Shown piece by piece: positions 33,076 to 53,557 of a stretch of DNA of 64,000 nucleotides (its first letter is position 1; every line of letters starts with the position of its first letter). The DNA comes from Gemmatimonadota bacterium (lineage in GTDB: Bacteria > Gemmatimonadota > Gemmatimonadetes > Gemmatimonadales > Gemmatimonadaceae), in the NCBI GenBank assembly GCA_021299375.1, contig JAJTGR010000011.1:43490-107489 (forward strand), written 5' to 3'. The translations under genes and the position numbers were made by a program. Below the pieces are notes generated by a model. That model saw only the letters and a list, made by a program, of their open reading frames with translations. It had not been told where the DNA came from and did no database searches.

Positions 33076-33076
<1 letters not shown>

Positions 33077-33510
33077 TGGCCGAGTCGAAAGCTGCGTCAC
33101 CGAAAGACGCGAAGAAGCCGAAGCCGATGCCGAAGAAGCAGCTGCAGTACTTCGAGAAGCGGCTGCTCGAAGAGCGCAAGCGCGTCCTCAAGGAGTTGGG
33201 CCACCACAGCGAGACCCTGGGGCCCAACGGCGAGGCGTCGGAGGGAGACACCAGCGCCTACTCGTTCCACATGGCCGATCAGGGGACCGACGCGATGGAG
33301 CGTGAGAAGGCATTTCTGTTCGCCTCGAAGGAGGGCCGATTTCTCTGGCACCTCGATCAGGCGTTGCGTCGCCTGTACAAGGCGCCAGAGACCTTCGGCA
33401 AGTGCCATCAGTGCGGCGAGGACATCGCGTTCGAGCGACTCGATGCGCTGCCGAACGCCCGCTACTGCATCGCGTGCAAGCAGCGCGAGGAAGACGCCAA
33501 GAAGGGATGA
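33076..33510 (+). CDS. TraR/DksA C4 zinc-finger protein
   Basis: Coiled coil with HMADQGTD; CHQC..ERLDALP.ARYCIAC. Confidence 0.9.
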
Positions 33511-33511
33511 C

Positions 33512-34051: not shown

Positions 34052-34058
34052 TCGTTGC

Positions 34059-34637
34059 ATGAAAGTGCATGCCCGTGCTGCCACCGCCTCGGCGGTCATC
34101 AACGACGTCCCTGCTGCCTCGGCCACGCCCCGGTTCTGGGTCATCGTGGTCGTTTGCGTGGTGCTCGACTTCGTCACCAAGGCGCTCGCCGTGAAGCATC
34201 TCGTGCCGCGGCACATGCCGCACGAGATCCTCGGCGACGTGGTGCGCTTCACGCTGGCCTATAACCCAGGCGCCGCCTTCGGCATGCACCTTGGACCGGC
34301 GTCCCGCTGGATCTTCGCGGGGTTGAGCGTCGTGATCGTGGCCGTGCTGCTCCGGGCCACCGCCGACCTGACGCGCGTGTCGCGCATCGCCGCCTTTGGG
34401 GTGCCGGTGGTGATCGGTGGGGCCATCGGGAACCTGCTGGACCGGGTGCGGCTGCGCGAAGGGGTCGTCGATTTCATCGACATCGGCATCGGCACTGTGC
34501 GCTTCTGGACGTTCAACGTGGCCGATACCGCCGTCACGATCGGCGCCGCCTGTCTGGTCATCGCGCTCTGGCAGCAGGACCGGGAGCTGCAGCGTCACCA
34601 GCAACCGCCGCCGCGCGAGTCTCAGGACGTCGGGTGA
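34059..34637 (+). CDS. lspA: Lipoprotein signal peptidase II, copy 2
   Basis: LDFVTK, YNPGAAFG, GAIGNLLDR, VVDF, FNVAD. Confidence 0.92.
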   Translation: MKVHARAATASAVINDVPAASATPRFWVIVVVCVVLDFVTKALAVKHLVPRHMPHEILGDVVRFTLAYNPGAAFGMHLGPASRWIFAGLSVVIVAVLLRATADLTRVSRIAAFGVPVVIGGAIGNLLDRVRLREGVVDFIDIGIGTVRFWTFNVADTAVTIGAACLVIALWQQDRELQRHQQPPPRESQDVG

Positions 34638-35692
34638 CGCCGGCGGCCGATCGAGGGCGGCAGTTCGCGTTCACCATCGGTGAGGCCGAGGGCGCTGACG
34701 CCGGTGAGCGCCTGGACCTGCTGGTGGCGCGCATCGGCGAGCTGTCGCGCGCCCAAGCCGCCACGCTCATCGCCAACGGGCATGTGTTGGTGAGCGGCCG
34801 ACGGGAGCGGGCGTCGTACCGGGGCGAAACGGGCGACGCGGTGCAGGTCACCGTTCCGCCGCCGCCTGGGCGTGACATCGTCGCCGAGCAGATCCCGCTG
34901 GACGTTGTCTACGAGGACGAGCACCTGCTCGTCGTGGACAAACCAGCGGGCATGGTGGTGCATCCGGCGCCGGGGAACTGGTCCGGTACCCTCGTGAATG
35001 CCCTGCTGGGGCGCGGTGAGCCGCTGGCGGAAGGCGGCGGCGAGGAGCGGGCCGGACTCGTGCACCGGCTGGACAAGGACACGTCGGGGCTGCTGGTCGT
35101 GGCCAAGACCGATGCCTCGCACCGGGTACTCAGTACGGCGCTCGCTGCCCGTCAGGTGACGCGGCGCTATGTGGCGGTGTGCTGGGGGCATGTGAACGCC
35201 GACGCGATCACGGTCGACCAGCCGATCGGGCGCGATCCGCGAGACCGGACGCGCATGGCGATCGTCCCGACAGGGAAGGCCGCGCGGACGGATTTCGTGC
35301 GACTGGCCCGCTTCGACGCCGTCGACCTGTTGCGTGCCCACCTGCATTCGGGGCGGACGCACCAGATCCGGGTGCACTTGGCGTCGGTGGGGCATCCCGT
35401 CATCGGGGACGACACCTATGGCGGGGGTGGGGGGCGCCGGTTGGCGGCGCTCCCGCCGCGTCGCCACTTCCTCCATGCGGCTTGGCTCCGCTTCCGGCAC
35501 CCCGTGTCGGGGGCGGTGGTAGACCTGCGATCGCCCCTGCCGCGCGACCTGCGGCATTCGCTCGCCGTGCTCAGCGGCATGCCGGAGCTCGACACGCATG
35601 AGGACCCGCTGGATGTCTTTGGCTTCTATCGCACCGACGAGCCCGCAGCCGGCGCCCGGTCGGACGGTGCCCCCGATGCCCTTGCCGGCTGA
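34634..35692 (+). CDS. RluA/RluD family pseudouridine synthase
   Basis: S4-like N-terminus, VVDKPAGMVVHP, VHRLDKDTSG, SGRTHQIRVH, GDDTYG, FLHA. Confidence 0.93.
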   Translation: MTPAADRGRQFAFTIGEAEGADAGERLDLLVARIGELSRAQAATLIANGHVLVSGRRERASYRGETGDAVQVTVPPPPGRDIVAEQIPLDVVYEDEHLLVVDKPAGMVVHPAPGNWSGTLVNALLGRGEPLAEGGGEERAGLVHRLDKDTSGLLVVAKTDASHRVLSTALAARQVTRRYVAVCWGHVNADAITVDQPIGRDPRDRTRMAIVPTGKAARTDFVRLARFDAVDLLRAHLHSGRTHQIRVHLASVGHPVIGDDTYGGGGGRRLAALPPRRHFLHAAWLRFRHPVSGAVVDLRSPLPRDLRHSLAVLSGMPELDTHEDPLDVFGFYRTDEPAAGARSDGAPDALAG

Positions 35693-36092
35693 GCCAGCCG
35701 AGGGCGACGAGTCACCGCAGTGGCTCGTCGTGGAGGTGGGCCGGGTGCGTTACGGCATTCCGGTCGAGCAGGTGCGCGGCGTGGTGCGGCCGGGGGGGCT
35801 CCGCCCGGTCCCAGGGGCGCCCGTGCAGCAGGCCGGCATCGTGAACGTGCGAGGCGCAATCGTCACCGTCCTGGACCTGGCCGCCATGCAGTCGGGCACC
35901 CGTGCCGTGGCCCCGGGGTCGATCGTCCTGTTGCAGAACGGGGCCCGGCCGATCGGGCTGACCGTCGATGCGGTGCACGATGTCCGCGTGGTGGAGACCG
36001 GGGAGGCTGGTCGCGCCGGCGCCATTGTCCCGCTGGACGCCGTGGCACTGTGCGCCCGGCATCTGCACTCAGGCGAAGCGAGGGAACGGTGA
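35676..36092 (+). CDS. cheW: CheW coupling protein
   Basis: YGIPVEQV..VPGAP...GIVNVRGAIVTVLDL..IGLTVDAV; start overlaps the rluA end. Confidence 0.85.
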   Translation: MPLPAEPAEGDESPQWLVVEVGRVRYGIPVEQVRGVVRPGGLRPVPGAPVQQAGIVNVRGAIVTVLDLAAMQSGTRAVAPGSIVLLQNGARPIGLTVDAVHDVRVVETGEAGRAGAIVPLDAVALCARHLHSGEARER

Positions 36093-36454
36093 GCCGGACA
36101 GTACTCATCTGCGACGATGCGCTCTTCATGCGCACCATGGTCGGGGATATCCTCACTCAGGCGGGATTCGAGGTCGTGGGCGAGGCGGAAACCGGGGTGC
36201 AGGCGGTGGAGAAGTACAAGCATCTCCGCCCCGATCTCGTGACCATGGACATCGTGATGCCCGATCTGGGCGGGATCGACGCCGTGCGCGAAATCACGAA
36301 GCATGATCCGTCGGCACGCATCCTCATGTGCAGTGCCATGGGGCAGCAGGCGCTGGTGGTCGAAGCCATTCAGGCCGGGGCCAAGGACTTCGTCGTCAAG
36401 CCGTTCCAGCCCAGTCGCGTGCTGGAGGCGGTGACCCGCGTGCTCGCCGCCTGA
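36089..36454 (+). CDS. cheY: CheY response regulator (Bacillus/Thermotoga-like)
   Basis: ICDDALFMR, TMDIVMP (phospho-Asp), MCSAMGQQ, VVKPF; GTGA overlap. Confidence 0.93.
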   Translation: MSRTVLICDDALFMRTMVGDILTQAGFEVVGEAETGVQAVEKYKHLRPDLVTMDIVMPDLGGIDAVREITKHDPSARILMCSAMGQQALVVEAIQAGAKDFVVKPFQPSRVLEAVTRVLAA

Positions 36455-36479
36455 CGGCGGACCAGCCGGGATCGCCGAC

Positions 36480-38429
36480 ATGGACGCGGCGCGCTACGCC
36501 GCGCTTTTTCGCACCGAGTCCGCCGAACAGCTCGCGGAGATCGACGCGGCGCTGCTGTTGCTTGAGCACGCGCCGCAGCGGACCGACGCGCCAGCGCTCA
36601 TCGCCACGCTGTTTCGTGGCATGCACACCATCAAGGGCATGGCGGCGGCGATGGGCTACGGCGCCGTGGAGCGGCTGGCTCACGCCCTCGAGTCGCGCTG
36701 TGAAGCGCTGCGCGCCGGCAGCGAGCCGCTCGATTCCGGTGTGCTGACGCTGCTCTTCGAAGCGACCGGGGCGATGCGGGAGGCGATCGCCGATGCCACG
36801 GCCGGTGAGCCGCGCGGGGAAACGGAGGCCCACAGCGCCGCCGTTACCGAGCGGCTCGTCCGCCACGGCCCTTCGCGGACGCCGGTACGTGCCGCCGCGG
36901 AGGCCCCGCTGCCGAGCGTCGGCGCGGTGCGACCCACCTCGGCCGCGGACGACTCACGGGACAGACCGGAGGTCGACACCGCGAATGTGCGCCATGTGGA
37001 CGTGCGGCTTACCGACGACTGCCCGCTCAAAGGGGTGCGCGCCATGCTGGTGCTGGCCCGGCTGCAGCAGGTGGGCCTCGTGCGCGGCGCGCATCCGGCG
37101 CAGGAGACGTGGCAGGATGACGGCTTCGACGGCCGCTTTCGCGTCACCCTCGTCACCGGGGCGACGGATGACGCCATCACGGAGGCGGCTCGGAGTGCCG
37201 GCGACGTCGAGCGCGTGCAGGTACGCCGGCCGGCGGTGGCCGCGGCCCGGTCCGCCGCCGTCGCGACGGTAACGGCGCCCGCGGCGCACACCGTCCGCAT
37301 CGACGCCGGCCGACTTGACACGCTGCTGGATCTCGTCGGCGAGCTGGTCATCACCCGCGACCGCCTGCTGCGCGCACTCGAAGCCACCGAGCATCCCGAT
37401 CGCGAGGTACTGCGCGCCGCCCGAGACTCGGCGCGGCTGGTGGGGGCGCTGGAGGAGGAAGTCCTGCAGGCACGGCTGCTGCCGGTGGGACAGGTCTTCG
37501 ACCGGTTTCCGCGTCTGGTGCGCGATCTGGCGCACGATCTCGGCAAGACCGTGCGTCTGGTGACGGAAGGGCGGGAGATCGAGCTCGATCGTTCCGTCCT
37601 CGACGCCATTGGTGAACTGCTGCTGCACCTGCTGCGGAACGCCATCGACCACGGCATCGAGGCGCCCGCCGTACGGCGGGCCGCCGGGAAACCGGCGGAG
37701 GGAGAACTGGTGCTGCGGGCCGCGCGCGAACGGACGTCGGTGGTCGTGCAGGTGCAGGACGATGGCCGCGGTATCGACCGCACCGAGGTCTTGCGCCGTG
37801 CACGGGACCTGGGACTGGTGCCTGCCGATGTCCAGGCGCTCGACGACGACCGCCTGCGTGCCGTGATCGCCCACCCCGGCTTCTCGACGGCGCGCGAAGT
37901 CACGCGGGTCTCGGGACGCGGTGTCGGCGTCGACGTGGTGAACACGCGGGTGCGGGCCCTCGGCGGCCAGATGGAGCTGGAGTCGATCGACGGGGTTGGC
38001 ACCGTCGTCACGCTGCGCCTGCCCATCACGCTCGCCATCACTCGGGCCCTGCTGGTGGAGGTCGCCGGCACGATCTTCGCCCTCCCGGCCGCGCATGTCG
38101 ATGAGGCGGTGGCGTATCACGCCACCCAACGGACGCGTCACGGCGGCGGTCCGGCCGTCACCATCCGCGACGAGATCCTTCCGCTGGTGGCCCTTGGCGA
38201 ACGGTTCGCCCTGTGCGAGTCGTCGTCGGAGGCGCGCGAGCAGCATCTGGCGATCGTCGAGAGTGGGGGGAAGCGGGCCGCCTTGCTCGTCGACGCGCTG
38301 GTGGCGCAGCAGGACATCGTCGTCAAGCCGCTCGACCTCGTCAGGGGGGCTGCGCCGTGGTTCAGCGGTGCCACCGTGCTCGGTGACGGCAGCCCCGCGC
38401 TCATCGTCGATGTCGGGAGTGTGGTATGA
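36480..38429 (+). CDS. cheA: CheA histidine kinase (Hpt, P2, dimerisation, HATPase, CheW-like domains)
   Basis: FRGMHTIKGMA, VRIDAGRLDTLLDLVGELVI, LRNAIDHGIE, DDGRGID, PGFST, SGRGVG.DVV, QQDIVVKPL. Confidence 0.95.
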   Translation: MDAARYAALFRTESAEQLAEIDAALLLLEHAPQRTDAPALIATLFRGMHTIKGMAAAMGYGAVERLAHALESRCEALRAGSEPLDSGVLTLLFEATGAMREAIADATAGEPRGETEAHSAAVTERLVRHGPSRTPVRAAAEAPLPSVGAVRPTSAADDSRDRPEVDTANVRHVDVRLTDDCPLKGVRAMLVLARLQQVGLVRGAHPAQETWQDDGFDGRFRVTLVTGATDDAITEAARSAGDVERVQVRRPAVAAARSAAVATVTAPAAHTVRIDAGRLDTLLDLVGELVITRDRLLRALEATEHPDREVLRAARDSARLVGALEEEVLQARLLPVGQVFDRFPRLVRDLAHDLGKTVRLVTEGREIELDRSVLDAIGELLLHLLRNAIDHGIEAPAVRRAAGKPAEGELVLRAARERTSVVVQVQDDGRGIDRTEVLRRARDLGLVPADVQALDDDRLRAVIAHPGFSTAREVTRVSGRGVGVDVVNTRVRALGGQMELESIDGVGTVVTLRLPITLAITRALLVEVAGTIFALPAAHVDEAVAYHATQRTRHGGGPAVTIRDEILPLVALGERFALCESSSEAREQHLAIVESGGKRAALLVDALVAQQDIVVKPLDLVRGAAPWFSGATVLGDGSPALIVDVGSVV

Positions 38430-39115
38430 ACGCAGACCCCCAGAACACCACCACCGTGCCGGCCTCAGATGGGCGTCCGGCGCGCGGAGCACCGATGGCA
38501 ACGATCCGGTCACTCAAGGCCATCCAACTCGACGCGCTACGCGAGACGGCGAACATCGGGGCCGGGCATGCGGCCACGGCGCTCTCGCAGCTGACCGGGA
38601 GCCCCATCCTCATCAAGGTGCCCGCCATCAGTGTTGCAAGCATCGAGGCGCTGCCCGTGCGCTTTGCGCCCGACGAGGAGCCGGTCGCAGCCGTGCTCCT
38701 GCAGATGCTCGGGGACCTCACCGGCCGCACCGTGCTGGTGTTCCCCAAACCCACCGTGCTGCGCCTTGCGGAGCTCATGCTGCGCCGGCCGGTCGGCTCC
38801 TCGGTGGCCTTCAGTGAGCTCGAGACCTCGGCGATCAAGGAACTGGGCAACATCCTGAGTGGCGCCTACATGAACGCGCTCAGCGACTTCCTCGGCATGC
38901 TGCTGCTGCCCTCCCCGCCCACGCTCGTGATCGACATGTCGACGGCGGTGCTGACGAGTGCGTTCGGCGAGTTTGCCGCCGACCCCGACGCCGTGCTGTG
39001 CGTGGAGAGCGAGTTCCTGATCACCGAGATGAACCAGACGCTGCGGGGCTTCTTCCTGATGTTGCCGGACCCGGCGTCGCTGCAGGTGATGCTGCGCGCG
39101 CTGCGCCTCGCCTGA
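38426..39115 (+). CDS. cheC: CheC phosphatase
   Basis: Two ExxN sites: DALRETANIGAGHAATALS and SAIKELGNIL. Confidence 0.92.
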   Translation: MNADPQNTTTVPASDGRPARGAPMATIRSLKAIQLDALRETANIGAGHAATALSQLTGSPILIKVPAISVASIEALPVRFAPDEEPVAAVLLQMLGDLTGRTVLVFPKPTVLRLAELMLRRPVGSSVAFSELETSAIKELGNILSGAYMNALSDFLGMLLLPSPPTLVIDMSTAVLTSAFGEFAADPDAVLCVESEFLITEMNQTLRGFFLMLPDPASLQVMLRALRLA

Positions 39116-39130
39116 CGCGGCGGCTCGTCG

Positions 39131-41818: not shown

Positions 41819-41819
41819 C

Positions 41820-42836
41820 ATGAGCATCGAGGGTCGGCTGCGTGACCTGAGCCTCATCGAGGTGCTGCAACTGCTGGCGCTCGGGCGGAAGACGGGGACA
41901 CTGCACTGCCATGCACCGCTGCAGGGCCGGTACGGGCGGCTGGTGTTCGATCAGGGCGCGATCCTTGATGCCGCGGTGACGGCATCGCCGGACGTGGCCT
42001 CAGGCCCGTGTCCCAACCGTCGCGCGGGCGACACCAAGGCGGTCGAGGATGCCGTGCTCGACGTGCTGCTCTGGCGTGACGGCACCTTCCGGTTCGCCGC
42101 CGGGGAGCCGACCGCGCCGACCACGGGCGTTCGTCTTGCAGTCGACCCGATTCTCATGGAGGGAGCGCTGCGCGCCGAGGGCTGGCGGCGCATCGAGGCG
42201 CGGGTGCCGCACGCGCGGGTCATTCCGACCTTCGTGGACATCGAGCCGCAGCAGCTGCCGCTGTTGCGCCTGACGCCACCGCAGTGGGAAATTCTGACCC
42301 GCGTCGATGGCCAGCGGGACCTCATGGCGCTTGCCGAGGCGATGCAGCGGGAGCTGACGGAGGTGGCGGAACTGGTGCACGACCTGATCGGCGCCGGGCT
42401 GCTGACGCTGCGCGAAGCGCAAGCGCCGCCGCGCCGAAATCCCACCCCGCCGGCCGGGCCGGCGTTCGTGCCCCAGACTGAACCGTCAACCGGACCCGTC
42501 GTGATGGTGACGCCGGCACCCGCCGATGACGAGGACGACGCAGAGGACGACGTCCACGAGGACTCGCTCTTCGACCCCATCGCCGTCGGCGCCGCGGTTG
42601 CGCCCGCCCCCGTTGAACCGTCCTTGCCTCGAGAGCAGGACGGGGCGGAGGCGCCGGCACTGCATGGGCCCACGTTGTGCCGGCACGGTGACGCACTCGC
42701 CCGCCGGGGTGACTTCCTGGGCGCCCTTGCGTACTGGAATGCCGCCTTGCGGGCGCCGGTGCCCGCAGCCGACGCGGAGCGCATCCGCGAGGTTGCGGCC
42801 CTCGCCGCGCGCCTGCACGCGCTGCTGCATCCGTAG
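41820..42836 (+). CDS. DUF4388 (PATAN-related) domain protein with HTH-like middle and acidic linker
   Basis: MSIEGRLRDLSLIEVLQLL...KTGTL..G.ILDA..LLW.DGTFRF; then WEILTRVDG....LAE; DDEDDAEDD. Confidence 0.8.
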   Translation: MSIEGRLRDLSLIEVLQLLALGRKTGTLHCHAPLQGRYGRLVFDQGAILDAAVTASPDVASGPCPNRRAGDTKAVEDAVLDVLLWRDGTFRFAAGEPTAPTTGVRLAVDPILMEGALRAEGWRRIEARVPHARVIPTFVDIEPQQLPLLRLTPPQWEILTRVDGQRDLMALAEAMQRELTEVAELVHDLIGAGLLTLREAQAPPRRNPTPPAGPAFVPQTEPSTGPVVMVTPAPADDEDDAEDDVHEDSLFDPIAVGAAVAPAPVEPSLPREQDGAEAPALHGPTLCRHGDALARRGDFLGALAYWNAALRAPVPAADAERIREVAALAARLHALLHP

Positions 42837-42906
42837 CGGCGCGCCTTCGAAATAGCAGGACACACCGGCGCAGTGGTCGGTGTGCGGCGAGGAGAGGAGC
42901 GGGCGT

Positions 42907-43599
42907 ATGCCCATTGTCGATCACGCCACGCGGCTGATCACCTGCAAGCTGGTCTACTACGGTCCGGGCCGGTCGGGAAAGACCACCAATCTGACCTACC
43001 TGCATTCGGCGCTGCCGAGCGGGCAGGTGGGCTCGCTCACGTCGCTGGCCACGCGTCGTGACCGCACGCTCTTCTTCGACTACCTGCCGGTGGACCTTGG
43101 CAGGGTGGGGGCCTATCAGGTCCGCTTTCAGATCTACACGGTGCCGGGGCAGCCGTACTACAAGTCCATCCGCCAGCTCGTGCTGCACGGCGCCGATGGC
43201 GTGGCGTTCGTGGCCGACAGCGAGCGGCACCGCTGGGACGACAACCTGGAGAGCCTGCAGGACATGCACGCCAACCTCGCCGAACACGGCGTCGACGCGC
43301 GCGACCTGCCCATCGTCATGCAGTACAACAAGCAGGACCTGCCGCCGTCCCTGGCGGCCAGCGTTGCCGAGCTGTCGGTGGCGCTGAACTTCCGCGGGGT
43401 GCCCGAATTTGCGGCCGATGCACTCACCGGGGCGGGCGTGTTCGACACCTTGCGGAGCCTCGGGGTGCGGGTGATGCGGCGACTGGGCGCCGACGAGGGC
43501 ACCGCGAGCGGTCGTCGTGCCGAGCGGGCGCTGCGCACACGGCTGAGTACGCCGGTGCTCGCCGGTGACGACCACGAACTGCCTGAGGTGGCCGCGTGA
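42907..43599 (+). CDS. mglA: MglA-like small GTPase
   Basis: KLVYYGPGRSGKTTNL, DRTLFFDY, YTVPGQ, GADGVAFVADS, QYNKQDL, GVFDTL. Confidence 0.88.
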   Translation: MPIVDHATRLITCKLVYYGPGRSGKTTNLTYLHSALPSGQVGSLTSLATRRDRTLFFDYLPVDLGRVGAYQVRFQIYTVPGQPYYKSIRQLVLHGADGVAFVADSERHRWDDNLESLQDMHANLAEHGVDARDLPIVMQYNKQDLPPSLAASVAELSVALNFRGVPEFAADALTGAGVFDTLRSLGVRVMRRLGADEGTASGRRAERALRTRLSTPVLAGDDHELPEVAA

Positions 43600-45332
43600 C
43601 ACCTGAGCAGCCGGTCGATCGTGCCCTACGTTTCGAAACGTTCGTGGTGGGCTCGTCGAACAGGCTCGCCACTTCGGCCGCCCGTGCTGTCGCCGAGGCG
43701 CCCGCGCAGTCGTACAACCCGCTGTTCGTGTACGGCGCCTCGGGGTGCGGCAAGACCCATCTGGTGGCCGCGATCGCCAACCGCGCCTCGGAGGTGCATC
43801 CCGCGTTGCGCGTGCGCTTCTCGTCCGGCGAGGAGGTTGCCGACCACCTGCATCGCGTCATTGCCAGCGGCCAACCGCAGCTGTTTCTCTCCGACTACCA
43901 GCCGGTCGACCTGCTCATCCTCGATGATGTGCAGTTCCTCACCGGCCAGCGCGAGACGCAGAGCGAGCTCTTGCGGTTGCTCAACGCGCTGTTGCAGGGC
44001 GGCCAGCAGCTCGTGCTCACCAGTGACCGACAGCCGTCGGAGATTGCCGACGTCGACCAGCGCCTCCTGTCGCGCCTCGCCGGGGGCCTGGTCGTCGATG
44101 TCGGAGCGCCGGACTTCGAGATGCGCCTCGCCATCCTGCGCAACGTGTCGCAGGCGCGCACCGTGACCTTCGCCGATGGGGTGCTCGAGGCCGTGGCCCG
44201 CCTGCCGTTCGCCAACGTGCGCGAGCTCAAGGGGGCGCTCAACAAGCTCACCGCATACCAGCAACTCGAGGGGATGCCCATCTCCGCTGGCGATGTGCGG
44301 GCGGTGCTGGGTGAGGGGGGGGCATCAGCGCTGCCCGAGCGCATCGAGGCGATCATCCCGGCCGGCACCGACTACGACGGCTTTCTGGCCGATGTGCTGC
44401 AGGAGGTCGAATTGCGCGTGGAGCCGTGGCGCGTACGGCTCGGCGAAGCCATTGCCCGGTGGAAGCCCGACGGCTGGAGCGTAGCGGTGCTCGAGCGGGC
44501 CATGGCCCTGCCCATGGCGCCGGACGTGGAGGGGTTGCTGCAGGCCTATGCCGGGGCCGTGGCCCATCTCCAGGGCCTCGAGGCCCAGGCGGCAACGATC
44601 GATCCGGCGCTGCGCGGGCATGCGGCGTTTCGCGACGTGGAGGCCATTCCGGCGGCCCAGCAGCTGGTGCAGCAGGCCATGGCCTCGGCGCTCCCGCTCC
44701 CGGCGCCGTCGCCGGCATTCACGCGCGCCTCGCTCGACGCGGGGCCGGAACACCAGTTGGTGCTCCGAGCCATCGATGCCGTGATCGACGAACCGGGGCA
44801 GCGCTACAACCCACTGCTGCTGCACGGGCCGAGTGGTAGCGGCAAGACGCACAGTGCCCACGCCATCGGCAACGCCATGCGCGCGCGCTGGCCCGACCGG
44901 ATCGTGGCGTGCCTCTCCGCCGCCGTCTTTGTGGAGGAGCTGATCGCCGCGATGCAGGAGGGCGGCACGGAACGGTGGCGGGGGCGCTATCGCCGCGCCG
45001 ATGTGTTCATCCTCGACGATATTCAGCTGCTCGAGGGCAAGGAGCGCACCCAGGAGGAGCTGTTTCACCTGTTCAATCACCTCGTGGGGCGCGGCAGCCA
45101 GGTCGTGCTCACCAGCGACCGCGCGCCTCGCACGCTGCTGGGGCTTGCCGACCGCCTGCGTTCGCGCTTCGAGGGAGGGCTGGTGGCTGCCTTGCCGGCG
45201 CGGGAGCGTCCGCGGCTCGAACAACTCATCGCCCGCGCTCCGGGCGAGCGTGACCACTTCTTCGAAGATCGCGAGAAGACGATCTGGGCGTGGCCCGACC
45301 TCGGTGGCCGGCTGATCGAGGAGTACCGATGA
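43596..45332 (+). CDS. Protein with two DnaA/Hda-type AAA+ modules and no DNA-binding domain IV
   Basis: Module 1: YNPLFVYGASGCGKTHL, LLILDDVQ, TSDRQP, RLLSRLAGG, NVRELKGAL. Module 2: YNPLLLHGPSGSGKTH, FILDDIQ, TSDRAP, RLRSRFEGG. Confidence 0.88.
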   Translation: MTPEQPVDRALRFETFVVGSSNRLATSAARAVAEAPAQSYNPLFVYGASGCGKTHLVAAIANRASEVHPALRVRFSSGEEVADHLHRVIASGQPQLFLSDYQPVDLLILDDVQFLTGQRETQSELLRLLNALLQGGQQLVLTSDRQPSEIADVDQRLLSRLAGGLVVDVGAPDFEMRLAILRNVSQARTVTFADGVLEAVARLPFANVRELKGALNKLTAYQQLEGMPISAGDVRAVLGEGGASALPERIEAIIPAGTDYDGFLADVLQEVELRVEPWRVRLGEAIARWKPDGWSVAVLERAMALPMAPDVEGLLQAYAGAVAHLQGLEAQAATIDPALRGHAAFRDVEAIPAAQQLVQQAMASALPLPAPSPAFTRASLDAGPEHQLVLRAIDAVIDEPGQRYNPLLLHGPSGSGKTHSAHAIGNAMRARWPDRIVACLSAAVFVEELIAAMQEGGTERWRGRYRRADVFILDDIQLLEGKERTQEELFHLFNHLVGRGSQVVLTSDRAPRTLLGLADRLRSRFEGGLVAALPARERPRLEQLIARAPGERDHFFEDREKTIWAWPDLGGRLIEEYR

Positions 45333-45345
45333 TCGGACCACGCTG

Positions 45346-47037
45346 ATGGCCATTCGCGGCAACCTGAGTGAAGCCAATCTCGCCGACGTGCTGCAACTGC
45401 TCGCGCTGGGCCAGAAGACCGGCTGCTTGAGCATGGCGCGCGAGGGCAGTTTTGGCAGCATCCACTTCGCCGATGGGCGCGTCGTGCACGCCGGCCTCGT
45501 CAACCGGCGCGACCGGCTCGGTGACCGGCTCGTGCGCCTTGGCGTGATCGACGCCGACGAGCTGGCTCGCCTGGCCGCCGAGGTGGCGCCGCAGGACGAG
45601 CGGGAACTCGCCCAGACGCTGCTCCGGTCGGGGCGCGTGGACCGCGACGTGCTGCTCACCGAGTACCGCGTGCACGTGGAGGAGGCTGTCTATCATCTCC
45701 TCTCGTGGACGCATGGCACCTTCACGTTCGAGCCCGATGACGAGGCGGTCCTCGAACCGCCGTTGCTCTCGGTGAGCGCGGACTCGCTGCTGCTGGAGGG
45801 GGCGCGCCGTGTCGACGAGTGGACGCTCATCGCCAAGAAGATCCCCAGTCTCGACCTTATCTTCGAGCTGGACGGACCGCGCCTCACCCAGCGCGAGACG
45901 CCGCTCAGCCCCGAGCAGGAGCGCCTCCTCCCATTGCTCGACGGGCTGCAGGACGTGCAGGCCATCATCGAGCGCTCGGGCCTCGGGGAGTTCGACGTGG
46001 GCAAGGCGTTGTACGGTCTGCTCACCGCCGGCTACGTGCAGCGCGTGGGGCGCAGTGCGGCGCGCCATCAACCGCCGCCGGAAAGCCGCGTGGCTGAGCA
46101 TCGCAACCTGGGCGTGGCCTTCTACAGGACGGGGTTGCTGGAGGAGGCGCAGCGCGAATTCCGGCGTGTGCTGGAGCTGCGCGACGCCGACGGCGTCGCC
46201 CGCTTTCACCTCGGGCTGGTGCAGGCGCGGCGCGGTGAGTGGCAGGCCGCCACGGACACCTTTCGCCGGGCCGCCAGCGAGCCGGACGCGCCGGTGGCGG
46301 TGTACCACAACCTTGCCTTCGCGCTCGAGCAGTGCGGTGACCTCGACGGTGCGCGCCAGGCGCTGGCAGACGCGCAGGCTCGCGCCGGCTCGACGCCCGA
46401 TCCGCGCATCGCGCTGTCCCGCGCGTTCCTGCACCTGCAGGCCGGTGCGATGCCGGAGGCTGACGCCGCCCTCGCCGAGGCGCGGGCGCATTGGGGCGCC
46501 CGGCAGCCGTCGGCGGCGTGGTTCCATGCTGCCGGCCTGTCGGCCGCACTGGCCGGGGACGCCGTCCGTGCCGCCGCGGTCCTCGAGGAAGGCCTCGCCG
46601 TCCATCCGCACGCCGTGGCGCTGCACAACAATCTCGCCGTGGTGCAGGAGCGATGTGGGAGCTACGAGCTGGCTGCCCGTACCCTCGAGCACGCGTTGCT
46701 CGCCGACGCCAGCTGTGCGCACCTGCACAAGAACCTCGGCGATTACCTCTACCGCGCGCAGCGTTACGACGAGGCGTTCGACGCCTTCGTTCGGGTGAGC
46801 CGGCTGGCGCCGGCACACGGCCCCGACGTCCATCTCAAGCGTGGCAACATCCATTACCGGCGGGGGGAGCTCGAGGAGGCGCGGCGCGCGTGGCAGGAGG
46901 CCCTGTCGCTTGATCCGGGCAACCGCATCGTGCAGGCGAACCTGTCGGCGCTGCCGCCGGCCCCCTTCCCACCGCTCTCGGCGACGACGCCGAGCGATGG
47001 CACCGTGGCCGTCTTCGCGGTGGCCTCGGAGACGTGA
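45346..47037 (+). CDS. DUF4388 domain + TPR repeat protein
   Basis: MAIRGNLSEANLADVLQLL...KTGCL..GRVVHA..LLSWTHGTFTF; C-terminal TPRs (HRNLGVAFY, YHNLAFA, LHNNLAV, LHKNLGDY). Confidence 0.85.
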   Translation: MAIRGNLSEANLADVLQLLALGQKTGCLSMAREGSFGSIHFADGRVVHAGLVNRRDRLGDRLVRLGVIDADELARLAAEVAPQDERELAQTLLRSGRVDRDVLLTEYRVHVEEAVYHLLSWTHGTFTFEPDDEAVLEPPLLSVSADSLLLEGARRVDEWTLIAKKIPSLDLIFELDGPRLTQRETPLSPEQERLLPLLDGLQDVQAIIERSGLGEFDVGKALYGLLTAGYVQRVGRSAARHQPPPESRVAEHRNLGVAFYRTGLLEEAQREFRRVLELRDADGVARFHLGLVQARRGEWQAATDTFRRAASEPDAPVAVYHNLAFALEQCGDLDGARQALADAQARAGSTPDPRIALSRAFLHLQAGAMPEADAALAEARAHWGARQPSAAWFHAAGLSAALAGDAVRAAAVLEEGLAVHPHAVALHNNLAVVQERCGSYELAARTLEHALLADASCAHLHKNLGDYLYRAQRYDEAFDAFVRVSRLAPAHGPDVHLKRGNIHYRRGELEEARRAWQEALSLDPGNRIVQANLSALPPAPFPPLSATTPSDGTVAVFAVASET

Positions 47038-47507
47038 CGCAGATCGTCGTGGGCATCTCCGAGCTCGCCGTGGCCGCCGGACAGGCGTCTCTCGTCACCC
47101 TTGGGCTGGGCTCCTGCGTGGCGATTGCGCTCCACGTCGCCGACCAGCAGGTAGGCGGCCTGGCGCACGTGCTGCTGCCACACGCGCTGCACACCGACAC
47201 GCCACCAGGCAAGGTGCCCGCCCTGGCGGTGCCGGCCATGGTCGCCCGCATGCGCGCATTGGGTGCGTCGGGGCGCATCGAGGCTCGGCTGGTGGGCGGG
47301 GCGTCGATGTTCGCGGCGCTGCTGCCAGTCGGCAGCGAAGGGCTGGGCGTCCGCAACGTGGTGGCGGCACGCACGGCCTGCCACGCGGCCGACGTCCCGG
47401 TCGTGGGGGAGCTCACCGGCGGTGAGACGGGACGCTCGGTGTTCTTTTGCGTGCAGTCCGGACGCCTGCAGGTGCGCACTGTGTGGGGTGACGATGTCGT
47501 CCTCTGA
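47034..47507 (+). CDS. cheD: CheD receptor glutamine deamidase
   Basis: TLGLGSCVAI (catalytic Cys), GLAHVLLP (His), LVGGASMF, GVRN, GG..GRSV. Confidence 0.85.
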   Translation: MTQIVVGISELAVAAGQASLVTLGLGSCVAIALHVADQQVGGLAHVLLPHALHTDTPPGKVPALAVPAMVARMRALGASGRIEARLVGGASMFAALLPVGSEGLGVRNVVAARTACHAADVPVVGELTGGETGRSVFFCVQSGRLQVRTVWGDDVVL

Positions 47508-48636
47508 CTCCGCCACACCGACGCGAGATCGGCGGCGGGTGCTCGTCGTCGACGACAGTGCCTTCATGCGCCGCCTCGTGAGCGATGTGGTACAGGAGAG
47601 CGGCGAGTTCGAGGTGGTGGGTACGGCCCGCGACGGGCACGATGCGCTCCGTCAGGTGGCGGCGCTCGATCCCGACCTCGTCACCCTGGACGTGGACATG
47701 CCCGGACTCGACGGGTTGGCGGCGCTCGAGGCCATCATGCGCACGCGTCCACGGCCGGTCGTGATGCTCAGCGCGGGCGGAAGCGACGGCGGCGTGGACG
47801 CGACGCTGCGCGCCCTCGAGCGCGGGGCCGTCGACTTCGTGCGCAAACCGTCAGGGGCCATCAGTCTCGACCTGGATGCGGTGCGTGATCAGCTGGTACA
47901 GGCGCTGCGGGCGGCTGCCACCGTGCATCTGTCGCACCCTACGGAGCGCCCTCGGGCTCCGGTCGCGTCGCGCGGCCCGGTGGTCATGGAGTCGGGTGCC
48001 CCGCTGATCGGGGGGCGCCATACACCCCAGCCCCCTGCGGCGGTGGTGTGCATTGCCGCCTCCACCGGTGGACCGGCCGCGCTGGCCCGTGTGGTACCCC
48101 TGCTGCCGGCGTGGTCGGACGTGGCAGTGCTCATCGTGCAGCACATGCCTCCGGGGTTCACGGCCAGCTTTGCGCGGCGGCTCGATGGGCAATCCCGCCT
48201 TCGGGTGGCCGAAGCCGTGCATGGCGAGCCGCTGCGAGCCGGGCATGCCTACGTGGCGCCGGGCGGGTTGCATCTGCTGGTGCAGGGCTCGGCGCAGGCC
48301 CCGCGGATTGCGCTCAGCGAGGAGGCGCCGCTTTGGGGGGTGCGGCCCGCCGCCGATCTCCTCTTCCGGTCGGTCGCGGCGCTATATGGCCCGCGCGCGC
48401 TCGGCGTGGTGATGACGGGAATGGGCTGCGACGGGGCTGAGGGACTGATGGCCGTGCGTACCGCCGGTGGCGGCGCCCTCGTTCAGGACGTCGCGTCATC
48501 GGTCATCCCGGGTATGCCGCAAGCGGCCGTGCGGCATGCCGGCGTCGATGCGGAAGTACCGCTCGAGGAACTGGCCGGTGCCATGGCGGCGCAGCTGGAA
48601 GCACGGCGCGCTGCCGGTTGGTGTGCATCCGCCTGA
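47494..48636 (+). CDS. cheB: CheB methylesterase with receiver domain
   Basis: VLVVDDSAFMR, TLDVDMP; catalytic ASTGG, VQHMP, TGMGCDG. Confidence 0.93.
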   Translation: MSSSDSATPTRDRRRVLVVDDSAFMRRLVSDVVQESGEFEVVGTARDGHDALRQVAALDPDLVTLDVDMPGLDGLAALEAIMRTRPRPVVMLSAGGSDGGVDATLRALERGAVDFVRKPSGAISLDLDAVRDQLVQALRAAATVHLSHPTERPRAPVASRGPVVMESGAPLIGGRHTPQPPAAVVCIAASTGGPAALARVVPLLPAWSDVAVLIVQHMPPGFTASFARRLDGQSRLRVAEAVHGEPLRAGHAYVAPGGLHLLVQGSAQAPRIALSEEAPLWGVRPAADLLFRSVAALYGPRALGVVMTGMGCDGAEGLMAVRTAGGGALVQDVASSVIPGMPQAAVRHAGVDAEVPLEELAGAMAAQLEARRAAGWCASA

Positions 48637-48655
48637 CGCGCCCGGAGCACGCCGC

Positions 48656-49120
48656 ATGACCAGCCCATTTCGATCGCTGGCGGGACCGGCCTCCCGCCGC
48701 CGCGCGCGGTCGGTGGTGGAGCGCTCCACCTTCGTGATTGTCGAGCTGCGGGGCGAGCGCTTTGCCCTGCCGGTCGAGCTCGTCGAACGCGTCGTGCGCA
48801 TGCCGGCAGGCTTGCGGCACGTGCGCGTGGCGGATCAGGACCTGGCGCTGATCGAAACCGGTTCGCTGCTGGGCCTCGCACCGGCCGCCGGCAAGGCGGC
48901 GCCGACCCGCACCCTGATCGTGCGGGACCGATCGCACTGGTGGGCGCTGGAGGTCGACGCCGTGATCGAGGTCTGTGCCGTCGAGACGGCGACGATCACG
49001 CCGTGTCCGGCAGACGCGTCGGGCACCCGCCGCGGGGCGCGCGTCGCTACGTTTGAACGGCCTGGCCAGACCATCGTGGTGCTCGATCTTCTTCGCCTCC
49101 TTCCGGATGTTGCGTCGTGA
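48656..49120 (+). CDS. Divergent CheW-like protein
   Basis: FVIVELRGERFALPVELVERV..WALEVDAVIEV..IVVLDL; lacks the G.xNxRG motif. Confidence 0.7.
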   Translation: MTSPFRSLAGPASRRRARSVVERSTFVIVELRGERFALPVELVERVVRMPAGLRHVRVADQDLALIETGSLLGLAPAAGKAAPTRTLIVRDRSHWWALEVDAVIEVCAVETATITPCPADASGTRRGARVATFERPGQTIVVLDLLRLLPDVAS

Positions 49121-50016
49121 CCGTCCCGGTCTCTCCGTCTGATCCTGCCGGTTCCTCGCTTGCCGCGCGCCTGGCGCGGCTGCAGGCGGTGCTCGCCGCA
49201 GCCGGTACGGACGCCGCGGAGTGGCTCCCGCCCGAGCGCCGTGCCCAGCTCAAGCAGGATATCATCGCGCTGTTTCGCGATGCCGAAGTCGCGCTGGCCG
49301 AGGCGCAGGCGGCCAAGGACGGGGCGAAGCGGCTGGCCGAGCAGTGGAAGCAGCTCAGTGCCGGCGGTGGGGAGCCGACGAAGCCCGCGTCGGCGTCTGG
49401 GCCGTCGCGGCTCGATCACCTCGGGGCGTCAACCTACCTCGAAAAGGGGTGGTCACTGATTTCCGTGGAGGACGCGGTCGGGGCCGAAGCGGCCCTGCGC
49501 CGGGCTCTGGAGCTGGTGCCCGGGCACCTCGAAGGCGAAGCGCTGCTCGGCTGGGCGCAGATGCTACGTGAGCAATTCGACGAGGCCCGCACGACCATCG
49601 AGGGCATTCTGGCACGAGACCCCAGTCATGCCCTCGCCCGCACCAATCTCGGGTACATCGCCCTGCGCGGCGGCCACCACGGCGAGGCCATCGAGCAGCT
49701 CACACAGGCGATTGCTGCGGGGACTGACCGCAAGGCCACGTTATACGCGCATCTCTACCTCGGGATGGTCTATCGCGAGCGCGAGATGTTCGATGACGCG
49801 GAGCAGTACTTCCGCAAGGCGCTGGCGCTCGGACCCAACTTGCTGCAAGCGTGGTACGAACTCGGGTTCACATTCTGGCGCAGCGGCCGAGGGGCCGAGG
49901 CGATGACGGCGTGGAAAACCGGCGCCGAGGCCAACAAGTTCAGTCCATGGGGCAAACGGTGCGGGGCCGTGGTGACCGCGGTGGAGCAGGGAGGCGAGCC
50001 GCCGGGCGACGCGTAG
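49117..50016 (+). CDS. N-terminal coiled coil + TPR repeat protein
   Basis: GTGA overlap; heptad segment QLKQDIIALFRDAE..AKRLAEQW; TPRs (ARTNLGYI, AHLYLGMVY, AWYELG). Confidence 0.82.
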   Translation: MTVPVSPSDPAGSSLAARLARLQAVLAAAGTDAAEWLPPERRAQLKQDIIALFRDAEVALAEAQAAKDGAKRLAEQWKQLSAGGGEPTKPASASGPSRLDHLGASTYLEKGWSLISVEDAVGAEAALRRALELVPGHLEGEALLGWAQMLREQFDEARTTIEGILARDPSHALARTNLGYIALRGGHHGEAIEQLTQAIAAGTDRKATLYAHLYLGMVYREREMFDDAEQYFRKALALGPNLLQAWYELGFTFWRSGRGAEAMTAWKTGAEANKFSPWGKRCGAVVTAVEQGGEPPGDA

Positions 50017-50030
50017 TCGGCGGTCGCCCC

Positions 50031-51233
50031 GTGGCGCCCTGGTGGGTCCTGCCGTTCCGCCATGCGGCTTTCCGGCTCGCGCCGTTTCGGTTCGCGTGGC
50101 TGCAGCTCGCGCGGTTCAGTCTCCTTCGGTCGCAGCTCGCGACGCCCACGCCAGCGCCCCTCCGCGTCCTCCTCGCCGCTGCACTCGTCACCGCGTTCGC
50201 CCTGACCCCCGTCCCGTCGTCCGCGAGGGCCCAGGTGGTCTCCATCCCCACCGCCGGCATCCGCCTCGACGGCGGCCGCTTCACCGTGGTGGCCGACCGG
50301 CAGGACGTGCGGTTGGCCACGGCCTTGCTGGCGGCGGCGCAGCGGCGCGACACCTTCCCGGGGTTGCCGCGGCCCCAGGCGCGGGTGCTGATCGCGGTGG
50401 CACCGGATGCCGAACGCTTTCGCGCCTGGGTCGGGCCGTTCGCCCCGGAATGGGGGGCGGCTATCGCTTTTCCCGACGAGCAACGCCTGGTGATGCAGGG
50501 TGGACGGGCCGGGTCGGACGCCGGCGATCCGCTGATCGTGCTGCGCCACGAACTGGCGCACCTGGCGCTCCACGAGGTCATGGGGCCGCTGCCGCCCCGC
50601 TGGTTCGACGAAGGCTACGCCAGTGTGGCCGCCGGGGAATTCACCCGCGAGCAGGCCTTTGAAACGTCGCTCGGCATGGTATGGCGCACACTGCCATCGC
50701 TGGACGCGCTCGAGCGCGGGTTTCGCGGTGGCGGCATGGAGGCCTCGTGGAGTTATGCCATGGCCCACCGCATCGTGAGTGAGCTCGACCAGCTGGGCGG
50801 CCCCATGGGGCTCACCAACCTGTTCACGTACTGGAAAGACAGCGGGTCGTTCGAGAAGGCGGTGCGCGGTGCCTACGGCATGACCGGCGACGCGTTCGAG
50901 AAGCACTGGCAGCAGCAGACGCGGCGCCGGTACGGCGCGCTGGCGCTGGTGACCAACGTGTCAGCGGCGGTCGGCCTGTTCGCCATCGTGCTGGTGCCGC
51001 TGTTCATCAGCCGGCGGCGGCGCGACCGGCGCAAGCTCGAGGCGATGCGCACCGCCGACGCCCTGCAGGAGGCGGCAGCTCGGGACAGTGCGTTGCAGGC
51101 CATGCTCGACGCCGGGAACCCCCAGGTGGGCTCAATCGACGAGTCCGCCGCGCCACCTCAGGTCACGTCCGGATCGGACACCCACGATGAACCCTTGCCC
51201 GGGGTGGCCGTGTCCCGGTATCCTGCGGCATGA
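50031..51233 (+). CDS. Peptidase MA-like (HExxH) domain protein, exported with a C-terminal membrane anchor
   Basis: Signal-like LRVLLAAALV..ARAQ; PEWGAAIA, LRHELAH, PRWFDEGYA; TM segment then RRRRDRRK. Start is uncertain. Confidence 0.75.
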   Translation: MAPWWVLPFRHAAFRLAPFRFAWLQLARFSLLRSQLATPTPAPLRVLLAAALVTAFALTPVPSSARAQVVSIPTAGIRLDGGRFTVVADRQDVRLATALLAAAQRRDTFPGLPRPQARVLIAVAPDAERFRAWVGPFAPEWGAAIAFPDEQRLVMQGGRAGSDAGDPLIVLRHELAHLALHEVMGPLPPRWFDEGYASVAAGEFTREQAFETSLGMVWRTLPSLDALERGFRGGGMEASWSYAMAHRIVSELDQLGGPMGLTNLFTYWKDSGSFEKAVRGAYGMTGDAFEKHWQQQTRRRYGALALVTNVSAAVGLFAIVLVPLFISRRRRDRRKLEAMRTADALQEAAARDSALQAMLDAGNPQVGSIDESAAPPQVTSGSDTHDEPLPGVAVSRYPAA

Positions 51234-51400
51234 CCCCGATCGCCCCCCCCCGCTCCCGCGCCCTCCTCTATTGGGGAGTCGCTGCGGCGTCCCTCCTGCT
51301 CGGCTATCTCGACCTGGCGCGCGGCGGCGAGACGATCGCGCCCATCCTGCTCGTGCTCGGCTACGTCGTACTGGTCCCGCTGGCCATCCTCAAGGGCTGA
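51230..51400 (+). CDS. Small two-TM membrane protein (56 aa), DUF3098-like; not in the supplied ORF list
   Basis: ATGA overlap; MTPIAPPRSRALLYWGVAAASLLLGYLDLARGGETIAPILLVLGYVVLVPLAILKG. Confidence 0.7.
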   Translation: MTPIAPPRSRALLYWGVAAASLLLGYLDLARGGETIAPILLVLGYVVLVPLAILKG

Positions 51401-51560: not shown

Positions 51561-51634
51561 GGGCGAATAGCTCAGCTGGTTAGAGCACCTGTCTTACACA
51601 CAGGGGGTCGGGGGTTCGAATCCCTCTTCGCCCA
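51561..51634 (+). tRNA. tRNA-Val (anticodon TAC); CCA not encoded
   Basis: Acceptor stem GGGCGAA/TTCGCCC plus discriminator A; D arm agctcagctggttagagc; anticodon stem cctgt-ctTACac-acagg; T loop GTTCGAATC. Confidence 0.97.
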
Positions 51635-53517: not shown

Positions 53518-53557
53518 ACGGGCCCGCCGTCTCGCGACGGCGGGCCCGTTCGCTTTT
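53518..53557 (+). terminator. Intrinsic terminator
   Basis: acgggcccgccgtc-tcgc-gacggcgggcccgt (14-bp perfect stem) followed by tcgctttt. Confidence 0.8.

Follow-up and report, generated by a model that had tools for sequence, protein, structure and literature searches.

We have analysed a window of 64,000 nucleotides from a Gemmatimonadota bacterium, a freshwater Gemmatimonas (assembly GCA_021299375.1, contig JAJTGR010000011.1, positions 43,490-107,489 of the forward strand) in which 15 co-directional genes on the plus strand, between positions 35676 and 51400 and with a largest gap of 70 bp, form a single array. The array interleaves chemosensory (che) genes with genes for a Ras-like MglA GTPase, for proteins with PATAN domains (DUF4388, PF14332) and tetratricopeptide repeats (TPR), for a membrane metallopeptidase and for a tandem DnaA-domain-III ATPase, here named DnaA2x. 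Judged from comparison with its relatives, the array is ancient within Gemmatimonadota. It is apparently undescribed in the literature: a preliminary description, made from the sequence alone, knew of no system with such a composition, and we have found no published one. We read the array as a layered pathway in which che input would act on an MglA/TPR/PATAN switch and, through it, on DnaA2x, its partner PATAN_TPR and the membrane peptidase, and we give this reading a probability of about one half.

To our knowledge, Myxococcus is the only case in which a chemosensory system is known to control an MglA polarity switch; its parts are dispersed there, and linking them took years of genetic work. 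Here candidates for input, switch and effector lie side by side across a phylum, and natural deletion variants hint at their hierarchy. DnaA2x, found in all sampled Gemmatimonadota loci, raises the question of a role for an initiator-type ATPase outside replication. Cultured carriers of the cluster exist (Gemmatimonas phototrophica and G. groenlandica), and a transcriptome of G. phototrophica has been published.

Domains were called with Pfam and NCBIfam on the window proteins. The comparative set comprises 87 species-level DnaA2x loci (numbered L), all from Gemmatimonadota and about 20 kb long, which were fetched with DnaA2x as bait in a search run with 5 DnaA2x sequences; their architecture was established by tblastn mapping and by gene calls with Pfam. 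The scan covered one genome per species and gave 557 confirmed DnaA2x relatives in species-representative genomes, the best 80 of which, all Gemmatimonadota, were taken as loci. A boundary-complete subset of 57 species-level loci extends to the upstream gene rluD.

Conservation and nested layers of the array

The order of the array recurs in G. phototrophica and in genomes whose DnaA2x is just 40-60% identical to that of the window. Every domain call of the preliminary description was confirmed by Pfam and NCBIfam, and all seven start/stop overlaps that it had taken to indicate translational coupling are present (36089, 38426, 43596, 47034, 47494, 49117 and 51230; six of 4 bp and one of 14 bp). 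Its suggestion that the internal genes belong with the che genes also holds in relatives. The internal genes are syntenic with che, the interleaving is constant, and neighbouring genes lie close together or overlap. In the window itself che and non-che genes meet tightly at two places, with a 15-bp gap at cheC/TPR895 (the gene of an 895-residue TPR protein) and a 4-bp overlap at PATAN_TPR/cheD. CheA together with CheY/CheC is encoded in 37 of the 57 boundary-complete loci, and MglA in 36 of these 37. Two further loci have an MglA layer without CheA, and the remaining 18 have neither.

Four architectures can be distinguished. In type C, the commonest (for example L004), the 5' part reads rluD-cheW-cheY-cheA-cheC-TPR895-PATAN, then a TPR+Roadblock gene, an MglB-like Roadblock gene, a Roadblock gene with a C-terminal extension, mglA and dnaA2x; the 3' part continues from dnaA2x with PATAN_TPR-cheR-cheD-cheB, an ExeA-like AAA_22 gene and a cheW gene (both optional), and TPR299-peptidase-orf56-TPR-rsmH. 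Type D differs from type C in lacking cheR and the three Roadblock genes, and is found in the window, in G. phototrophica and in 8 other loci of the Gemmatimonas clade; the window array is thus a reduced variant. Type B has the MglA layer without CheA, either with no che genes (L083) or with cheY-cheC alone retained (L005). Type A, with 17 loci, is cut down to rluD-dnaA2x-PATAN_TPR-peptidase, with a small Roadblock gene after rluD in 5 of the 17.

These architectures would resolve into three nested layers: a core (DnaA2x, PATAN_TPR, the peptidase and the small membrane protein orf56), an MglA layer (MglA, TPR895 and the second PATAN protein, joined in most relatives by the three Roadblock proteins) and a receptor-less che set. 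Losses are nested in the same way, in that Che goes before the MglA layer while the core stays, and this fits a flow of signal from Che to MglA to the core. Two loci illustrate the intermediate steps. L005 has lost CheA, CheW, CheR, CheD and CheB, and its CheY and CheC remain beside TPR895, PATAN, Roadblock and MglA. In L010 (8648-15548), a Gemmatimonas metagenome-assembled genome (MAG) with 74-89% protein identity to the window, both che blocks, TPR895, PATAN and mglA are gone; dnaA2x-PATAN_TPR-TPR299-peptidase-orf56 is kept, and only 366 bp separate rluD from dnaA2x.

By neighbour-joining, the 17 type A loci form one derived clade, sister to loci with MglA and mostly Che, and the second Walker A/B of DnaA2x is decayed exactly in the type A lineages. 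Together with the vestigial Roadblock genes, these features provisionally indicate an old full array that was cut back on several independent occasions. The converse scenario, a minimal core as the ancestor to which layers were added, was rejected on the same grounds.

The array may be one transcription unit, on weak but consistent evidence, and the close packing of its genes speaks for this. No terminator-like hairpin above chance occurs before the only strong one of the region, which directly follows the downstream TPR gene (Table 1). Promoter and terminator sites inside the array occur at the frequency expected from shuffled sequence, a result that is silent on internal promoters. Read-size contigs from lake metatranscriptomes span cheW/cheY, PATAN/mglA and dnaA2x/PATAN_TPR at very low depth, and in G. 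phototrophica the cheW and cheB genes of the cluster are expressed at average levels.

The chemosensory genes

The che proteins retain their signalling residues. The acceptor residues of CheY are intact (DD, D54, S82 and K104), the Hpt domain of CheA carries HTIKG, and CheC keeps both ExxN motifs. CheY is the best-conserved protein of the array, with 84% identity to its counterpart in L026 compared with 46% for DnaA2x in the same locus. The composition of the set and the best NCBIfam models for CheC and CheD (CheC_Thtogales and CheD_Thtga) point to an F1-like system of the Bacillus/Thermotoga type; the NCBIfam CheA models match CheA below their cutoffs. The preliminary description had stressed that CheC and CheD, usually adjacent partners, are set apart here. 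The two che blocks do flank the internal genes, but the argument from adjacency is weak.

No receptor, that is, no methyl-accepting chemotaxis protein (MCP), no CheR and no Roadblock/MglB gene is encoded anywhere in the 64-kb window, and tblastn with the MCP signalling core gave no match in the window or the 87 loci. In G. phototrophica MCPs are located elsewhere in the genome. A cheR gene precedes cheD in 26 of 58 loci of relatives. In several type C relatives an AAA_22 ATPase resembling ExeA/GspA/MshM lies between cheB and cheW (L004:15934-16731), and this gene is not present in the window.

The che genes could be those of an ordinary flagellar chemotaxis system, with an unrelated MglA/DnaA2x module inserted into an ancestral che operon. 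Such a juxtaposition would account for the F1-type composition (CheA with P2, CheC, CheD, single-domain CheY and two CheW, with Thermotogales models best), and the lack of a receptor in the cluster is shared by many flagellar systems whose MCPs are dispersed. The flagellum of Gemmatimonas is single and polar (PMC9862903), and the core persists without che genes in 18 loci. We nevertheless consider an accidental association unlikely. The two-sided interleaving of che genes is unchanged down to about 40% identity, and overlaps occur at junctions of che and non-che genes; L005 retained CheY and CheC with the MglA layer after its other che losses, and L010 lost the che blocks and the MglA layer together. 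Moreover, a second CheA of G. phototrophica (RS15835) is reported to rise together with an MCP gene on calcium addition, which also co-activated flagellar genes (PMC9862903), and either Che system may drive the flagellum.

The MglA layer

The GTPase of the array is, by alignment and motifs, a genuine MglA, in agreement with the preliminary call. It matches Myxococcus MglA (PDB 5ymx) with an E-value of 3.4e-60 over residues 2-194, and Myxococcus and Thermus MglA structures (5ymx/6h17/3t12) with E-values of 1e-53 to 3e-60 over the full length. It has the P-loop GPGRSGKT, the intrinsic arginine in RDRTLFFD, the motif YTVPGQ, in which threonine replaces aspartate in PM3, and NKQD. In most relatives mglA is preceded by three Roadblock/LC7 genes, one of them MglB-like, as confirmed by Pfam. 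The G. phototrophica genome has two Roadblock genes elsewhere.

The window MglA ends in a clade-specific C-terminal tail of roughly 35 residues (43480-43599). A tail of this kind, GA(E/D)DGTxxxxRAxxALRTP..., with 25-60 residues, is found in the MglA of L001, L003, L008-L016 and L040, which are loci without Roadblock genes in the cluster; the MglA of MglB-bearing relatives ends after the G domain. In the Gemmatimonas clade, loss of the cluster Roadblock genes thus coincides with a conserved MglA tail.

The TPR895 gene keeps its position in types B, C and D. PATAN domains occur in two array proteins (Table 1). No Response_reg match was found in either, so that they are not PatA-type (PATAN-receiver) regulators. 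Sequence searches of the PDB were uninformative for both PATAN proteins and for the peptidase. Gene neighbourhoods that combine MglA/MglB with PATAN were reportedly described by Makarova et al. in 2006. In a later survey (Wuichet and Sogaard-Andersen 2015, PMC4316618), MglA/Roadblock genes occasionally neighbour PATAN genes, and Gemmatimonadetes are among the lineages with Group 1 MglA. A term search of its text gave no match for 'chemotaxis', 'CheA' or 'DnaA' and found 'chemosensory' for Frz alone; a link to a peptidase was not searched for in it.

DnaA2x and its core partners

Judged by its domain content, DnaA2x represents a new family with tandem DnaA domain III modules and no DNA-binding domain; its homologues are annotated merely as "DnaA/Hda family". 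Residues 5-231 align without gaps to domain III of Bacillus subtilis DnaA (8bv3, E 1.8e-50) at about 40% identity, and the same domain is the top Foldseek match (TM-score 0.91). The two halves of the protein are 40% identical to each other. The AlphaFold2 model (pLDDT 88.9) comprises a domain III with lid (residues 1-240), a helical domain (260-365) beyond a disordered linker, a lidless AAA+ core (384-535), after which comes the tail motif EKTIWAWPDLGGRLIEE, and a disordered tail. Foldseek against the PDB gave no fold match for the helical middle domain. In the Gemmatimonas clade DnaA2x has about 578 residues and lacks the lid of the second module (45200-45332 in the window); other lineages, with about 650 residues, keep this lid.

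Against the DnaA equivalog model TIGR00362 DnaA2x scores 427 bits (cutoff 343.9), and against the Hda model TIGR03420 it scores 144.9, below the cutoff of 194.8. No Bac_DnaA_C or DnaA_N match was found in DnaA2x, and the model consists of a pair of AAA+ modules with a helical linker domain, so that domains I, II and IV are absent. Since domains I and IV are absent, DnaA2x is not a DnaA orthologue; canonical DnaA is encoded separately in G. phototrophica (GEMMAAP_RS00010). Its tandem architecture and sub-cutoff score indicate that it is not Hda either, and by eye a QL[SP]LPL-like clamp-binding motif was not seen at the N-terminus.

The Walker A/B, sensor I, arginine finger and sensor II motifs of the N-terminal half are intact in all 87 loci. 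Walker A/B of the C-terminal half are kept in most loci with both Che and MglA and lost in about 25 others, whereas box VII (RLRSRFEGG) and the tail EKxxWxWPxLxxRIIEE are conserved almost everywhere. Preservation of box VII and the tail where Walker A/B have decayed suggests that the main contribution of the second half to a DnaA-type ATP site may be to donate an arginine finger or to act in assembly. Trees built by neighbour-joining place the N-halves in a single clade; the C-halves also form one, except for one long-branch true DnaA, and the two half-trees agree. The separate clades imply that the duplication would be older than all sampled lineages.

Named homologues are confined to the phylum. 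The nearest belong to Gemmatimonas/Gemmatimonadaceae only (76% identity in G. phototrophica), a profile of the most distant members matches solely Gemmatimonadota labels, including Longimicrobiales, and the named matches in two protein searches are all Gemmatimonadota. The window sequence occurs in many lake-water metagenomes.

PATAN_TPR follows DnaA2x in 76 of 76 loci, and the peptidase is present in all 56 loci with enough downstream sequence. The peptidase has an N-terminal signal or transmembrane segment, a C-terminal transmembrane segment and then a basic tail of about 75 residues, from which a periplasmic catalytic domain and a cytoplasmic tail are predicted. In types C and D, as in L010, TPR299 keeps its place ahead of the peptidase. 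Conserved in more than 40 relatives, orf56 comes after the peptidase gene in the majority of type C and type D loci (tblastn E < 1e-6, 71-84% identity).

DnaA2x might instead regulate replication or the cell cycle. It would join genuine DnaA or single-stranded DNA at the origin as an Hda-like arginine-finger donor, and the PATAN/TPR, MglA and Che proteins would couple initiation or origin anchoring to polarity and environment in these budding bacteria. The N-half does score above the DnaA cutoff, its gapless fit to domain III includes the region of the initiator-specific motif, and the near-universal box VII despite decay of Walker A/B is the design of an arginine-finger donor. The array also lies between divIVA-ileS-lspA-rluD and the dcw division cluster, and canonical DnaA is a separate gene. 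We find this less likely than a juxtaposed flagellar che system, however. DnaA2x lacks domains I, II and IV and any visible clamp-binding motif, the proteins invariably associated with it, a PATAN/TPR protein and a periplasmic peptidase, are not replication proteins, other DnaA ATPases without domain IV occur in pilus loci (see below), and adjacency to dcw is absent in the minimal-core lineages.

About as improbable is a role in envelope, division or budding morphogenesis, in which the core would position the periplasmic peptidase at the pole or septum and MglA and Che would modulate it. The invariance of a membrane MA peptidase with a cytoplasmic tail (56/56) would fit, as would divIVA upstream and rsmH-ftsL-ftsI-mur downstream. 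PatA, a cyanobacterial PATAN protein, is found at division sites, and Gemmatimonas takes its name from budding. The flanking order may however be mere housekeeping synteny, no substrate or structural relative of the peptidase is known, and the cluster contains no peptidoglycan enzyme.

The proposed pathway

In the layered pathway that we prefer, receptors encoded elsewhere would control CheA. Phosphorylated CheY, reset by CheC, would act on the TPR/PATAN/MglA layer and alter the nucleotide state or location of MglA. MglA-GTP, with the PATAN/TPR adaptors, would in turn control ATP-dependent self-assembly of DnaA2x at the membrane peptidase, and this assembly would place or activate a polar envelope machine, of which type IV pili are the most probable. 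We infer the protein-protein steps, the direction of the signal and the output from the arrangement and losses set out above. The single pathway of the preliminary description stands in part: synteny and nested losses speak for it, whereas the core is independent of Che and MglA in 18 loci and the window itself holds a reduced form.

Control of type IV pili, or of polarity or a polar machine, is the favoured output by analogy with proteins of other phyla. MshEN is the N-domain of PilB/MshE, and among the best library matches to DnaA2x are proteins in which MshEN is joined to DnaA ATPase domains, one or two per protein, that lack domain IV. Such MshEN-DnaA proteins are encoded directly upstream of pilB-pilT-pilS-pilR in L088 (2901-10496) and L093 (4491-12530), and between pilD and pilB in L089 (1738-16490). 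At least 548 of them exist, labelled Hydrogenedentota, Nitrospiraceae and FCB-group MAGs and annotated as DnaA/Hda or ATP-binding proteins; we found no literature on MshEN-DnaA proteins. Three further loci combine elements of the array in other ways. In L090 (3765-12094) a full-length DnaA2x homologue is directly preceded by a TPR895 homologue (blastp 4e-56), with two bactofilin genes 5 kb off; the locus has no MglA, PATAN or che genes and lies outside the Gemmatimonadota-type context. In L092 a TPR-DnaA fusion is encoded 5 kb from a PilT-like gene, and L091 has a DnaA2x-PATAN pair. G. phototrophica encodes and expresses PilT, PilT/U, GspE and prepilins. In Synechocystis, PATAN regulators bind PilB1 and PilC (bioRxiv 10.1101/2021.06.11.447907).

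Several points weigh against the layered pathway or its proposed output. In 18 loci the core stands without che or mglA genes, so that it has a function of its own for which polarity is not required, and with DnaA2x as bait the statement that the core is never lost is partly true by construction. The tree behind the loss scenario is a neighbour-joining tree without bootstrap. The links from CheY to MglA and from MglA to DnaA2x are drawn wholly from gene order, and the metatranscriptome contigs, besides their low depth, may contain DNA. By composition the che set is of the flagellar F1 type, in a genus with a polar flagellum. The close, gapless match of the N-half to DnaA makes a role directed at DNA or DnaA conceivable. 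As to the output, neither the window nor any 20-kb Gemmatimonadota locus contains a type IV pilus gene, and MshEN-DnaA domains are 31-39% identical to DnaA2x compared with 34-45% to genuine DnaA. As MshEN-DnaA is not specifically related to DnaA2x, the link to pili is by analogy only, and on these identities we have given up the notion of one non-replicative DnaA clade.

A broader proposition is that a tandem DnaA-derived ATPase outside replication acts as the assembly element of a polarity machine, switched by MglA/MglB and tuned by Che within one operon, and that with MshEN-DnaA it forms a class of non-replicative DnaA-type regulators of type IV pili or polar envelope machines. This is possible, and we put it forward tentatively, with more doubt than the pathway itself.

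Gene calls and flanking regions

The features of the array and its borders are listed in Table 1. With a G+C content of 70% in the window, six-frame lists of open reading frames (ORFs) are crowded; the G+C content at third codon positions of all 15 plus-strand ORFs of the array is 0.80-0.90. For the peptidase, GTG 50031 is the most likely start, rather than 49851. A mechanical ORF of 652 residues from 51543 crosses tRNA-Val, and its first ~30 residues are a typical translation of a tRNA gene; the true start of the secreted TPR protein is near 51804. This protein is kept by synteny as downstream neighbour in Gemmatimonadales, and its membership in the array is uncertain. A promoter-like site lies at 53646-53675, between the terminator-like hairpin and rsmH.

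Table 1. Features of the array and its immediate borders (window coordinates).
Feature	Position	Strand	Evidence and remarks
rluD-like pseudouridine synthase	34634..35692	+	PseudoU_synth_2 + S4; upstream boundary gene
cheW, first copy	35676..36092	+	CheW E 1.1e-18; alternative ATG 35598; 4-bp overlap with cheY
cheY	36089..36454	+	Response_reg E 1.2e-30; single-domain response regulator
cheA	36480..38429	+	Five Pfam domains above cutoff: Hpt-P2-dimerisation-HATPase-CheW
cheC, CheY-P phosphatase	38426..39115	+	CheC E 6.2e-22; best NCBIfam CheC_Thtogales
TPR895, all-TPR scaffold of 895 aa	39131..41818	+	Many TPR families; cytoplasmic, no transmembrane segment
PATAN (DUF4388) protein	41820..42836	+	DUF4388 E 1.9e-19; Pro-rich linker, short C-terminal TPR-like repeat
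mglA, Ras-like GTPase	42907..43599	+	PDB MglA full length; stop overlaps dnaA2x start by 4 bp
dnaA2x, tandem DnaA-domain-III AAA+ ATPase	43596..45332	+	Bac_DnaA twice, E 1.4e-96
PATAN_TPR, PATAN with helical insertion and C-terminal TPR array	45346..47037	+	DUF4388 E 2.8e-32, TPRs
cheD, receptor deamidase, CheC partner	47034..47507	+	CheD E 1.8e-15; 4-bp overlap with PATAN_TPR
cheB methylesterase (receiver + CheB_methylest)	47494..48636	+	E 4.3e-59
cheW, second copy	48656..49120	+	CheW E 1.6e-12
TPR299, 299 aa	49117..50016	+	N-terminal coiled-coil-like region; TPR families
Peptidase_MA_2 zinc metallopeptidase	50031..51233	+	E 3.2e-13; motif HELAH
orf56, hydrophobic membrane protein of 56 aa	51230..51400	+	Conserved in relatives by tblastn
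tRNA-Val(TAC)	51561..51634	+	ARAGORN; neighbour, outside the system
Secreted TPR protein, ~565 aa	51804..53501	+	TPR families; signal-peptide-like N-terminus MSRHFQAIAGFGLALGGTLVPSVASAQ
Terminator-like hairpin	53518..53549	+	14-bp stem, 12 GC, T-rich tail; right after secreted TPR gene

The upstream flank consists of tilS, hpt, ftsH, yggS, divIVA, ileS, two lspA genes and rluD, the last lying directly upstream of the array in all 57 loci long enough to show it. Downstream of the array are tRNA-Val and the secreted TPR gene, then rsmH, ftsI, murE, murF and mraY. A defence system or mobile element was rejected because the array has a fixed chromosomal position between housekeeping genes phylum-wide and shows no shift in base composition. 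The upstream order yggS-divIVA-...-ileS-lspA-rluD (27393-35692) is as in the distal division/cell-wall region of Bacillus, and the genes after the array (53744-61340) run rsmH-ftsL-ftsI-murE-murF-mraY; by inspection, with no HMM test, an mraZ-like ORF was not seen between 53501 and 53744. The two lspA genes for signal peptidase II are tandem copies (33302-34051 and 34059-34637), both with a full Peptidase_A8 domain, and the duplication is found also in G. phototrophica and L003.

Comparison with known systems

A close parallel is the Frz-RomR-MglAB system of Myxococcus, which likewise joins a CheA/CheW/CheY-type pathway to MglA with Roadblock-type regulators and there switches polarity. Its signal passes from Frz through RomR to MglA/MglB, and phylogenomics suggests an MglAB core to which chemosensory input was added later (PMC3441718). 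The Myxococcus modules lie in separate loci, whereas the Gemmatimonadota genes form one interleaved array. The characterised MglA genes of Myxococcus and Bdellovibrio are, according to PMC4316618, not near those of their interaction partners. The connectors also differ: Myxococcus uses RomR, FrzZ and FrzX, whereas nothing RomR-like is found in the array, whose sole candidate is the single-domain CheY with CheC. The only receiver proteins of the array are CheY and CheB, with no RomR, dual-receiver FrzZ or FrzCD among its genes. Frz belongs to the ACF class and has the receptor FrzCD, whereas the che set of the window is F1-like and receptor-less. Finally, a DnaA-type ATPase, a PATAN/TPR partner and an MA peptidase are all missing from the Myxococcus module, and the window cluster has no MglB.

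Within the che genes, the order CheW-CheY-CheA-CheC is shared with the Myxococcus Dif pathway (difC-difD-difE-difG), although the array lacks the DifA receptor and DifB. With the F1 chemotaxis systems of Bacillus and Thermotoga it shares the CheC/CheD pair, the class of CheA being judged here by composition.

Cyanobacterial pilus control by Tax/Pix/Hmp and PatA-type (PATAN-receiver) proteins also combines a chemosensory pathway with PATAN proteins. There PATAN is fused to a receiver, whereas in the array it occurs by itself or joined to TPRs, and CheY is separate. The Tax/Pix/Hmp clusters have neither MglA nor a DnaA-type ATPase, and the Gemmatimonadota array has no adjacent pilus genes.

DnaA2x shares the domain III fold and all nucleotide motifs with DnaA and Hda, and differs in having two domain III modules per chain, the tail EKxxWxWPxLxxRIIEE and PATAN/TPR and MglA neighbours. 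MshEN-DnaA lacks this tail motif and carries an MshEN fusion instead of a PATAN/TPR partner, and it resembles DnaA2x in being a DnaA ATPase without domain IV, sometimes in tandem, that is combined with pilus-related interaction modules. Its place next to pilB/pilT suggests that the theme may reach well beyond Gemmatimonadota.

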